From Eledone cirrhosa (lineage: Eukaryota), in assembly GCA_964016885.1 (NCBI GenBank), contig OZ024742.1:250666001-250730000 (forward strand): a stretch of 64,000 nucleotides of DNA. The letters run 5' to 3'. The notes beneath the pieces are model-generated. The model worked only from the letters and a program-made list of their open reading frames with translations, was not told the origin of the DNA and did no database searches. Made by a program: the position numbers and the translations under genes. Every line of letters starts with the position of its first letter. Within the stretch, counting starts at the first letter, position 1. Positions 16,773 to 42,846 of the stretch are shown piece by piece.

Positions 16773-16956
16773 ACAAAATATTAATAAATGAAAAATATAT
16801 TCTCATAATCAAAATATATATTATATTATACATATTTCAAAGGTACAATGGTGTTTAAGTACGTTTTCATCAGTAATGTTTTTTTAAAATCATTTTTAAA
16901 GCATTTCGAAGACCTTACGCTATTGTTTTAGAGCAGTGACAGTCTCACTTACTTTA

Positions 16957-17341
16957 AATTAAGCATACAGTGTATTGCAAAATACACTATATATACATTC
17001 ATATATATATCGCTATTTCAGAGCACCAATTCAAATTTTCAATTTCTGCTTGACCGGCAACCGCTCTGTATAATCAGTTACTGATTATTACTAGAATTCT
17101 ATAAGAATCAAACATTCATGATTTTCAGCAAACAGGTGGAGTACTTAGCTTTGATAAGTACCAAAAAGTACGAAACAGAGCTCTGTCAGCTTTATCTCCC
17201 CTGTTTGCTGAAAATTTAAAGTAAGTGAGACTGTCACAATAGCGTAAGGTCTTCGAAATGCTTTTAATTAAGCATACAGTGTATTGCAAAATACACTATA
17301 TATACATTCATATATATATCGCTATTTCAGAGCACCAATTC
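16957..17341 (+). mobile_element. Retrozyme-like element 1: 309-nt monomer plus a 76-bp terminal direct repeat
   Basis: 16957-17032 is identical to 17266-17341. It contains the hammerhead at 17121-17215 and several perfect hairpins, and its 3' end joins (TA)n. Confidence 0.8.
17121..17215 (+). ncRNA. Extended type I hammerhead ribozyme, U3-A8 core variant, predicted cleavage after GUC at 17187
   Basis: agct-TTGATAA-gtac-caaaaa-gtac-GAA-A-cag-agct-ctg-T-C-agct. Helix I is extended by attttcagcaaacagg(t)ggag / ctcc-cctgtttgctgaaaat across a tactt/ttat internal loop. Confidence 0.88.
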
Positions 17342-17342
17342 T

Positions 17343-17882
<540 letters not shown>

Positions 17883-17883
17883 T

Positions 17884-18211
17884 TTTGGATTTAATGCTCT
17901 GAAATAGCGATATATATGTGAAGACAAACATAGAATATTCGAAAATATTCTGTATGTTTATAATAAACATTTTGAAGACCTAATCGCTATAGAATAGAAT
18001 ACGTCACGTATTACAATTTGAGATTCTCGATAAAAGCAAGGGAAGTAACCTACGCGTTTCATTCTTATTAGAAATCATCAGGATTACATATCCAATGCTT
18101 TTATCGAGAACGACACAGCTAGAGACTTATAGAATACTTAGCTGTGTACAGGAACTGGTTTGAAAGAGCGGTAGCCGGTCCGGCAGAAATTAGAATTTGG
18201 ATTTAATGCTC
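17884..18211 (-). mobile_element. Retrozyme-like element 2: 312-nt monomer plus a 16-bp terminal direct repeat
   Basis: tttggatttaatgctc at 17884-17899 and 18196-18211. The reverse complement is collinear with element 1 (aatttctgc..gaccggc.accgctct, attctataag, atagcg..aggtcttc.aaatg, atatatatcgctatttcagagca). Confidence 0.8.
18024..18110 (-). ncRNA. Type I hammerhead ribozyme, predicted cleavage after GUA (between 18051 and 18050)
   Basis: Reverse complement gtaatc-CTGATGA-tttc-taataa-gaat-GAA-A-cgcg-T-A-ggttac. Helix I is extended by a 15-bp ttctcgataaaagca/tgcttttatcgagaa duplex, and loop III is the palindrome cgcg. Confidence 0.82.
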
Positions 18212-37886: not shown

Positions 37887-38069
37887 AGTTTTAATATAGA
37901 TGAGATTCTACAGGACTAGAACTGTTTCATTCTTTAGAAATCATGATGATTTCTAAAGAATGAAACAGTTCTAGTCCTGTAGAATCTCATCTATATTAAA
38001 ACTTTTATACTCTGCAATGTATTGAGTACCTTATTTACTGTGGTTACCTCCGATTAAGCCGGAATAACG
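37887..38069 (+). mobile_element. Fold-back element: perfect 58-bp-arm palindrome centred in a hammerhead-like core, plus 3' tail
   Basis: 37887-37944 is the reverse complement of 37946-38003. The right arm reads TGATGA-tttc-taaa-gaat-GAAA-cag, and the tail contains tattgagtac. Confidence 0.75.
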
Positions 38070-42023: not shown

Positions 42024-42245
42024 ATATATAGTATATATATATATATAGTATAGATATATATTTATTATATATATATATATTTATTATATATATATTATAT
42101 ATAGTACATATATATATATATAGTATATATATATATTTATTATATATATACATATATATTTATTATATATATATTATATATAGTATATATATATAGTATA
42201 TATATATATTTATTATATATATATATATATTTATTATATATATAT

Positions 42246-42846
42246 ATGTCAACTCTGGATGTCGGTGAGCATGTCCAGCCAACCTCAGTCTCCTCTGTGT
42301 CACTTTTGAGCTGACTTTTGGGATGCTCCCATACAGCTCTGAGTTTTTCATCCTCAGTGTATACTGATTAATGTTCAGAGCCATCCTCGGCATTCTCGTG
42401 TAGCACCCATCCACCATCTGAGTGAGTCTCTTGGTCAGTGTCCAAGTCTCAGACCCATACAGCAGCACAGACTCCACTACAGCAATGAAGAGGCGGATTT
42501 TCAGGTCTCTACGAAGGTCCGACTTCCACACCGATCTCAAGCTGTGACACGCCGCCCAGGCCTTGCTCTTCCTCTCAACATCATCTTCCGTATTCCCAAT
42601 CTTTGCTCCCAAATACAGGAAGTCCTCAACCAATCCAGAGTTGACATTGCACTCAGTGCTCCTTTGGGAGCCCCTACATGGACACACTAGAAGTGGAAGA
42701 CCAAGGTTAACATATGTTGATGCCCTAAGGACAGACACTGGTCTGTTGGAGATGCAGGATATGGCAGCGATAATGAGGGACAAAGACCGCTGGAGAGAAC
42801 TCGTCCATGGATCTCGGGAATTTTACCCGCCTTAGATAGATAGATA
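42246..42846. mobile_element. RTE-clade LINE 3' fragment with 5' inversion and (TAGA)n tail
   Basis: Minus 42632-42246 encodes VEDFLYLG..LLYGSETWTL..RRLRLAGHAHRHPELT. Plus 42633-42835 continues PELTLHSVLLWEP..GRPRLTYVD..DKDRWRELV. Confidence 0.92.

Follow-up and report, generated by a model that had tools for sequence, protein, structure and literature searches.

A 64,000-nucleotide stretch of the Eledone cirrhosa genome (contig OZ024742.1, positions 250,666,001 to 250,730,000; hereafter the window) carries an extended type I hammerhead in which the core pair between positions 3 and 8 is U-A in place of C-G. We conclude that this motif is most probably the processing ribozyme of a non-autonomous, ~320-nt non-LTR retrozyme, of which the window would hold one recent insertion, and that the element is probably mobilised in the manner of Penelope-like elements and processed through a double hammerhead. 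We file it as a non-LTR retrozyme in which an already described core variant is present at unusual scale; neither the chemistry nor the variant nor the class of element is new.

The window motif and the repeat copy that carries it

Judged from its letters and predicted structure, the window motif is a hammerhead, and its self-cleavage is a prediction. Three helices surround the conserved core boxes, helix I is open-ended as in the type I topology, GUC provides an NUH cleavage triplet, and positions 3 and 8 form a Watson-Crick pair (Table 1), a pair that belongs to the active hammerhead fold according to the accessible text of PMC3884650. The predicted fold of the whole motif has a stability z-score of -7.9, with 0 of 200 shuffled sequences equally stable, and a strict descriptor finds one site in the window versus a mean of 0.0 in 100 shuffled windows. 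Re-reading of the letters bears out the sequence, numbering, core, helices II and III and GUC site reported in the first-pass annotation. Its description of helices I to III as perfect needs a correction: next to the core, helix I has four Watson-Crick pairs, followed by U.U oppositions. Helix I of the canonical animal motif is given as 6 bp in the part of PMC4209133 available.

Table 1. Coordinates of the hammerhead, the retrozyme copy and the adjoining features in the window.
Feature	Position	Strand	Comment
Copy of the ~320-nt, apparently non-coding repeat	16898-17345		contains the hammerhead
5' inverted, truncated segment of the repeat (Penelope-type 5' inversion)	16898-16960	-	joined to the direct segment via a few shared bases; locus L005
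Direct segment of the copy	16952-17345	+	one 309-nt monomer plus 85 nt of a second unit; single hammerhead
Extended type I hammerhead	17121-17215	+	includes the distal 16-bp stem
Distal 16-bp stem	17121-17136 with 17200-17215	+
4-bp stem beyond helix I	17138-17141 with 17196-17199	+
GUAC strand of the helix I internal loop	17141-17144	+	may make a tertiary contact with loop II; replaced by GUAG in sister subfamilies
Helix I, AGCU/AGCU	17147-17150 with 17188-17191	+	5' strand pairs with the helix III loop in the alternative fold
Core box UUGAUAA	17151-17157	+	U3 is 17151, A8 is 17156
Helix II, GUAC/GUAC, 4 bp, with 6-nt loop II CAAAAA	17158-17171	+
G12-A13-A14 (GAA)	17172-17174	+
Helix III, 4 bp plus tetraloop	17175-17186	+	perfect palindrome over all 12 nt, through which two units can pair
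GUC cleavage triplet	ends at 17187		C17 is 17187; predicted cut after 17187
Optional 3' tail	17320-17345	+	family copies stop at the internal (TA)n (~17319) or ~26-29 nt beyond
(TA)n-rich target tract	17346-17880	.	common to two facing elements
Second, distant member of the same repeat superfamily	17883-18203 (ends approximate)	-	faces the first element tail-to-tail, at 64% identity; core of the canonical C3-G8 type, from 18081

The motif had been expected to escape searches restricted to CUGANGA cores, and it does; the gathering scores of Rfam miss it as well. An Rfam search of the window gives no match at the gathering score, and the best match to the motif within clan CL00010 is HH9 (RF02275), at 24.5 bits against a cut-off of 52. 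Members of a C3-G8 family in the same genome likewise fall below the Rfam cut-off, at 36.5-38.9 bits. A search of the genome with HH9 returned one sub-threshold match, which led to the U3-A8 subfamily that we call family C.

The tertiary-contact motifs proposed by analogy with Schistosoma are matched in part. The Schistosoma hammerhead is described with a loop II of CAAAUA and an internal loop of UCCA:GUAC (PMC2632901, available in part). Loop II of the window motif matches CAAAUA at five of six positions with the 3' A kept, and GUAC precedes the core by six bases. The strand opposite GUAC, however, is not UCCA, and two large sister groups carry GUAG; a partial resemblance is thus what the sequences suggest. 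The Sm-alpha and HH9 motifs share with the window motif the type I topology, the 4-bp helix II, the position of GUAC and a 6-nt loop II with C first and A last, and this loop is identical to the HH9 consensus loop. Both differ from the window motif in having a C3-G8 core, a 6-bp helix I and another 3' strand in the internal loop. In A-clade loci the GUAC strand ends in C or in G, and this difference between subfamilies goes along with the type of helix II and loop II, which possibly reflects tertiary covariation or else a single event.

The repeat copy consists of the inverted segment and ~1.3 units, and its 3' end lies on a (TA)n tract. Its monomer has an 11-nt deletion near 17236 relative to the 320-nt family unit. 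Non-LTR retrozymes are characterised by the lack of coding capacity and of LTR, PBS and PPT; in the window, no stop-free frame of 120 amino acids crosses the hammerhead unit, and such frames occur only in microsatellites alongside; the surrounding genome, of 3.0 Gb, is microsatellite-rich. With one hammerhead and this deletion, the copy is probably passive, and no unit-length RNA could be obtained from it alone. The first-pass annotation spoke of a selected ribozyme, and selection is indeed seen for the lineage, but not for the window locus: this is one young copy of a repeat family, and the perfection of its motif is therefore inherited.

The second element, facing the first, places a U3-A8 and a C3-G8 copy ~900 bp apart. 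Its triplet is GUA, its helix II closes with a U.U pair, and its helix III is a palindrome of 6 nt; one further partial copy is found in L101.

Compensatory change at the 3-8 pair

A descriptor modelled on the window motif (Y3, R8, a 6-nt CAANAA loop and a G-C pair closing helix II) gives 2,924 matches in the genome and 0 with the reversed-pattern control. These comprise 2,876 U3-A8, 18 C3-A8, 15 U3-G8 and, by subtraction, 15 C3-G8 cores; C3-G8 families with other loops fall outside the descriptor, and the 98% of U3-A8 is a share of its matches rather than of all genomic hammerheads. When a 35-mer was searched with positions 3 and 8 left free, 161 exact genomic matches were found, and the 100 listed include 98 U3-A8, one U3-G8 and one A3-A8. 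The 33 copies with a single change had formally been foreseen as grounds for rejecting a compensatory swap. They are scattered over several subfamilies at 0.6% and 0.5% of descriptor matches, and the mean per-site deviation among best-matching copies is 1.8%; by this comparison they look like post-insertion decay at background level, which does not refute the swap.

Evidence from related lineages points the same way. Nine representatives, chosen by hand with one or two per lineage from lineages 58-98% identical, were compared for covariation: 96% of cells are paired and 20 of 29 base pairs show double changes, versus 37-45% paired in slid controls. Position 3-8 is U-A in six of the nine related representatives, C-G in three and mismatched in none. 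Core positions 4-6, 9 and 12-16.1 are invariant in all nine, while the helices vary. Family B (L062-L091), ~70% identical, has C3-G8 in 28 of its 29 clustered motifs. One B-type copy, at L087:2029 (+), has U3-A8, and requires a second change or a chimera if it is not the product of decay.

The U3-A8 subfamilies form a clade with support 98/99, with the C3-G8 lineages B and J outside, and the split between this clade and family B has support 100/100, in a tree whose root depends on long branches. Since the nine representatives are related, the 3-8 change may be a single event. On these comparisons the swap is compensatory, as first claimed, though at the level of the lineage, and it is most simply a tolerated change that was fixed once on the stem of a large repeat clade. 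We propose that the route from C-G to U-A may have run via a U.G wobble, under mutation biased towards AT.

Public contigs (four runs from one study, probably of the same organism and hence not independent) contain no variant at or above 10% at 17151-17157, 17172-17175 or 17186-17187, and paired changes in helix II, at 17159 and 17170, are listed. Among the eight contigs listed for one run, two end at 17187, and ends of this sort cannot show RNA ends.

Insertion anatomy and the resident Penelope-like elements

The ~320-nt unit is found both dispersed and in tandem, with a period of 317-321 nt in the window subfamily and ~316 nt in family C. All 40 full-length matches that were scored, of 2,198 candidates and with the window included, are 99-100% identical. 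Low-GC tandem units within 150-450 bp, each with a type I hammerhead, are among the defining features of a non-LTR retrozyme, and the family has them; the window copy is a representative with one hammerhead. Among segment 3' ends, 60 of 82 lie inside a 40-nt zone, at the internal (TA)n or ~27 nt farther at the end of the tail. By our reading an adjacent inverted segment is present in 22 of 29 distinct loci, one of 30 being a duplicate.

The accessible text of PMC8557442 ascribes to Penelope-like elements partial tandems, inversion at the 5' end, a tail that may be present or absent, and insertion into (TA)n. The retrozyme shows each of these features, namely a partial tandem, a 5' inversion, an optional tail and a microsatellite target. 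Its tail is 26-29 nt, and that of Penelope-like elements is given as 30-40 nt (PMC8557442, PMC11167929, both available in part). Such tails have been traced to two internal start sites of reverse transcription in the portion of PMC11167929 available.

We also considered whether the repeat might multiply at the DNA level, as a satellite or as a piece of a Penelope terminal repeat, its ribozyme being a relic. The long tandem arrays of family C would suit such an origin, as would the derivation of retrozymes from Penelope termini, followed by local amplification, set out in the available text of a 2026 preprint (10.64898/2026.07.22.740005). Against it, the copies lie dispersed on many contigs, truncated or inverted at the 5' end and fixed at the 3' end, compensatory changes conserve the structure across the diverged lineages, and no homology to the Penelope termini tested was found. 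This makes spread at the DNA level very unlikely, and mobilisation of a processed RNA the preferred reading.

Further hammerhead repeats were seen as well. Family C (L104, L125) forms long, nearly identical 316-nt arrays, and its helix III departs from a perfect palindrome. U3-A8, a 4-bp helix II and an 8-nt palindromic helix III characterise two hammerhead repeat families that are more distant (L118, L119, L120), and a C3-G8 family has 466-470-nt tandem units (L121-L123). A 97% match to the latter, at L182:4438-4657, lies ~0.9 kb downstream of a Penelope-like ORF and is either its terminus or an insertion.

Insertions do not have their 5' ends concentrated at the cut site: one of 81 lies within -5 to +10, where ~4 are expected, in a sample mostly picked for an intact hammerhead (a search for an unbiased sample gave only 14 places). 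This result would fit a fold that is retained for a purpose other than cleavage, for instance as a structure that a Penelope protein binds or uses for priming, or one that cleaves only with that protein. An anole Penelope-like element is a precedent: as far as the available text of PMC11167929 goes, its hammerhead showed no cleavage without protein, its catalytic mutants still inserted, and insertion in vitro did not need hammerhead cleavage. We nevertheless consider a role of this kind quite unlikely, given the core positions that are invariant in all nine representatives while the helices change, and given the joint change of positions 3 and 8, which pair with each other when the fold is catalytically active.

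At least 150 GIY-YIG matches were counted in the genome; the CxxC linker of the Neptune and Nematis clades is present in many of them, and Penelope-like domain calls rest on such matches and on sequence motifs. A U3-A8 minimal hammerhead lies downstream in 12 of 30 GIY-YIG loci versus 0.05 per 30 shuffled loci. One Penelope-like family with such hammerheads ends on (TA)n with an optional tail, as the retrozyme does. An apparently intact element (L172:652-5631, -) has a 938-aa ORF with reverse transcriptase, CxxC linker and C-terminal GIY-YIG motifs, situated between two identical U3-A8 minimal hammerheads 4,979 bp apart; related copies occur in L173 and L181. On the strength of these likenesses, a resident Penelope-like element is a possible helper of the retrozyme. 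No sequence in common was detected between the retrozyme and the 3' regions of eight Penelope-like loci, nor with 12 loci that have long ORFs, these eight and 12 being a small part of the at least 150 matches. The minimal hammerheads of Penelope-like elements (L032:2211, L172:652 and similar) combine U3 with A17, whereas the U3-A8 retrozyme clusters all have C17; U3 and A17 could pair as the inhibitory C3-G17 does in canonical cores.

U3-A8 is the fixed core not only of the retrozyme clade, with its thousands of copies, but also of two autonomous Penelope-like families and of two hammerhead repeat families that are more distant. It is conceivable, if unlikely, that the pair is favoured in this genome and not just tolerated: a Penelope protein or host factor could read or chaperone the core, with retrozymes converging on the core of their helper, and in the studied subfamily U3-U4-G5 and the palindromic helix III could form a switch that is off in the monomer and on in the dimer. 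If so, whole retrozyme radiations of this kind would be absent from CUGANGA-based censuses.

Folding of single and tandem units and comparison with known retrozymes

For 17121-17215, the lowest-energy fold predicted differs from the hammerhead: helix III is paired with U3-U4-G5 and the 5' strand of helix I, and this alternative fold lies 2.9 kcal/mol below the hammerhead in the 95-mer, by energies not calibrated against a known-active hammerhead. Within the 95-mer, helices I and III are predicted to pair with a probability of 0.01, and a circular monomer is predicted to prefer the inactive pairing by 2.9 kcal/mol as well. For a natural tandem pair of the window subfamily folded without constraints, the double hammerhead is found at -130.2 kcal/mol versus -113.4 kcal/mol for two separate hammerheads.

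Forty adjacent pairs (80 units) were folded, with one heterologous pair of the window subfamily set aside. The double hammerhead is the lowest fold in four of eight homologous pairs of the window subfamily and in four of six pairs of a C3-G8 family, and in none of six pairs of other near subfamilies or of 19 pairs of family C. A single hammerhead is the lowest fold in two of the 80 units. Perfect palindromes, of four different sequences, are present in 51 of 84 motifs with a 12-nt helix III.

These predictions bear on whether the window copy cleaves efficiently as a single hammerhead stabilised by tertiary contacts, and perhaps cuts host transcripts that run through it. Helix III, with four Watson-Crick pairs and a tetraloop, is longer than in most animal motifs described in the accessible text of PMC4209133, loop II and GUAC resemble the Schistosoma contact, and invertebrate retrozyme hammerheads mostly cleave well according to the part of PMC7229834 available. 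Nearest-neighbour energies also ignore tertiary contacts, which could cover the gap of 2.9 kcal/mol. Efficient single cleavage is possible on these grounds, yet we judge it the less probable outcome, since the hammerhead is so seldom the lowest fold of a single unit, helices I and III are hardly predicted to pair in the 95-mer, and the strand opposite GUAC does not fit the Schistosoma contact and the C of GUAC varies to G. The activity expected of the motif from the start is thus plausible, by folding, for tandem transcripts, and doubtful for the isolated 95-mer.

An explanation of the U3 change itself was sought in this misfold, on the supposition that U3 had been selected to escape it. The window subfamily fits, with a gap of 2.9 kcal/mol versus 5.6 kcal/mol with C3-G8. 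The effect is reversed in two sister families (7.0 with U3-A8 versus 4.1 with C3-G8, and 5.7 versus 4.5), and escape was therefore rejected as a general cause.

Processing through a double hammerhead, the preferred reading, would proceed as follows. Tandem arrays would be transcribed as multimers, in which neighbouring hammerheads are predicted to pair through their palindromic helix III, and the resulting double hammerhead would cut after C17, with U3-A8 in place of C3-G8 holding nucleotide 8 for catalysis, as established knowledge of the fold and the covariation indicate. Unit-length RNA would probably be closed into circles by a ligase of the host, as the analogy with coral, mussel and axolotl retrozymes suggests; for retrozymes of other animals, the accessible text of PMC7229834 reports dimer cleavage, circularisation by tRNA ligase and abundant circles. 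Alternative pairing in the monomer or circle is predicted to damp re-cutting. A Penelope-like reverse transcriptase with its GIY-YIG endonuclease would then copy the RNA into (TA)n tracts, and copying from one of two internal start points would give the 5' truncations, inversions and optional tail that the insertions display. The folding results thereby yield a testable prediction of how tandem precursors are cut while circles survive.

Metazoan non-LTR retrozymes, as portrayed in the available text of Cervera and de la Pena 2020 (PMC7229834) and of the 2026 preprint by Li et al. (10.64898/2026.07.22.740005), resemble the Eledone repeat in several respects. Both have a short, AT-rich, apparently non-coding unit of 150-450 bp, tandem and dispersed, with one type I hammerhead per unit, in genomes that also have Penelope-like elements; a U.U pair that closes helix II in a sister family has been described for an axolotl motif as well. 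Differences from the retrozymes covered there are the U3-A8 core of the dominant clade, the 12-nt palindrome of helix III, and (TA)n-aimed insertions with Penelope-type inversions and tails, accompanied by no homology found to a Penelope terminus. Those retrozymes produce abundant linear and circular unit-length RNA, and the Eledone repeat may do so too. The dependence of retrozymes on Penelope-like elements is argued in the same preprint, as far as its accessible part goes, and the insertion anatomy described here adds support to Penelope enzymes as movers of retrozymes.

The core variant likewise has precedents. Natural C3-G8 to U3-A8 covariation was reported in several hammerheads in 2011, and such pairs were noted to be active in vitro (Perreault et al., PMC3088659); U3-A8 figures there as a rare variant, whereas in Eledone most copies across an entire repeat clade carry it. 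About 1,300 U3-A8 minimal motifs associated with Cercyon Penelope-like elements of Schistosoma mansoni were described in 2014 (PMC4209133). They have the same core covariation and a Penelope context, but in the portion of PMC4209133 available they are minimal, heterogeneous and mostly single, whereas the Eledone motif is a full three-helix hammerhead in a homogeneous, recently amplified repeat. A search of openly accessible main texts turned up no retrozyme clade in which a full-length U3-A8 hammerhead is fixed, and such a case may already be in print.

The rarer 3-8 pair can evidently support recent amplification to thousands of copies. Homologous mobile elements with U3-A8 and with C3-G8 hammerheads occur together in this genome, in one instance at a distance of 900 bp, and form a natural paired comparison. 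Censuses that fix the core as CUGANGA, as does one string descriptor in the accessible text of PMC8557442, can miss the form that a motif most often takes in a genome.

Two degenerate hammerhead-like motifs were also seen in the window, at 37943 (+) and 23316 (-), with A3-G8 and U3-G8 cores, respectively; the former resembles the C3-G8 repeat family of L112, L181 and L183. A 219-aa stop-free frame at 42163-42822 (-) has, by eye, the look of what we take to be the C-terminal part of a LINE-type reverse transcriptase.
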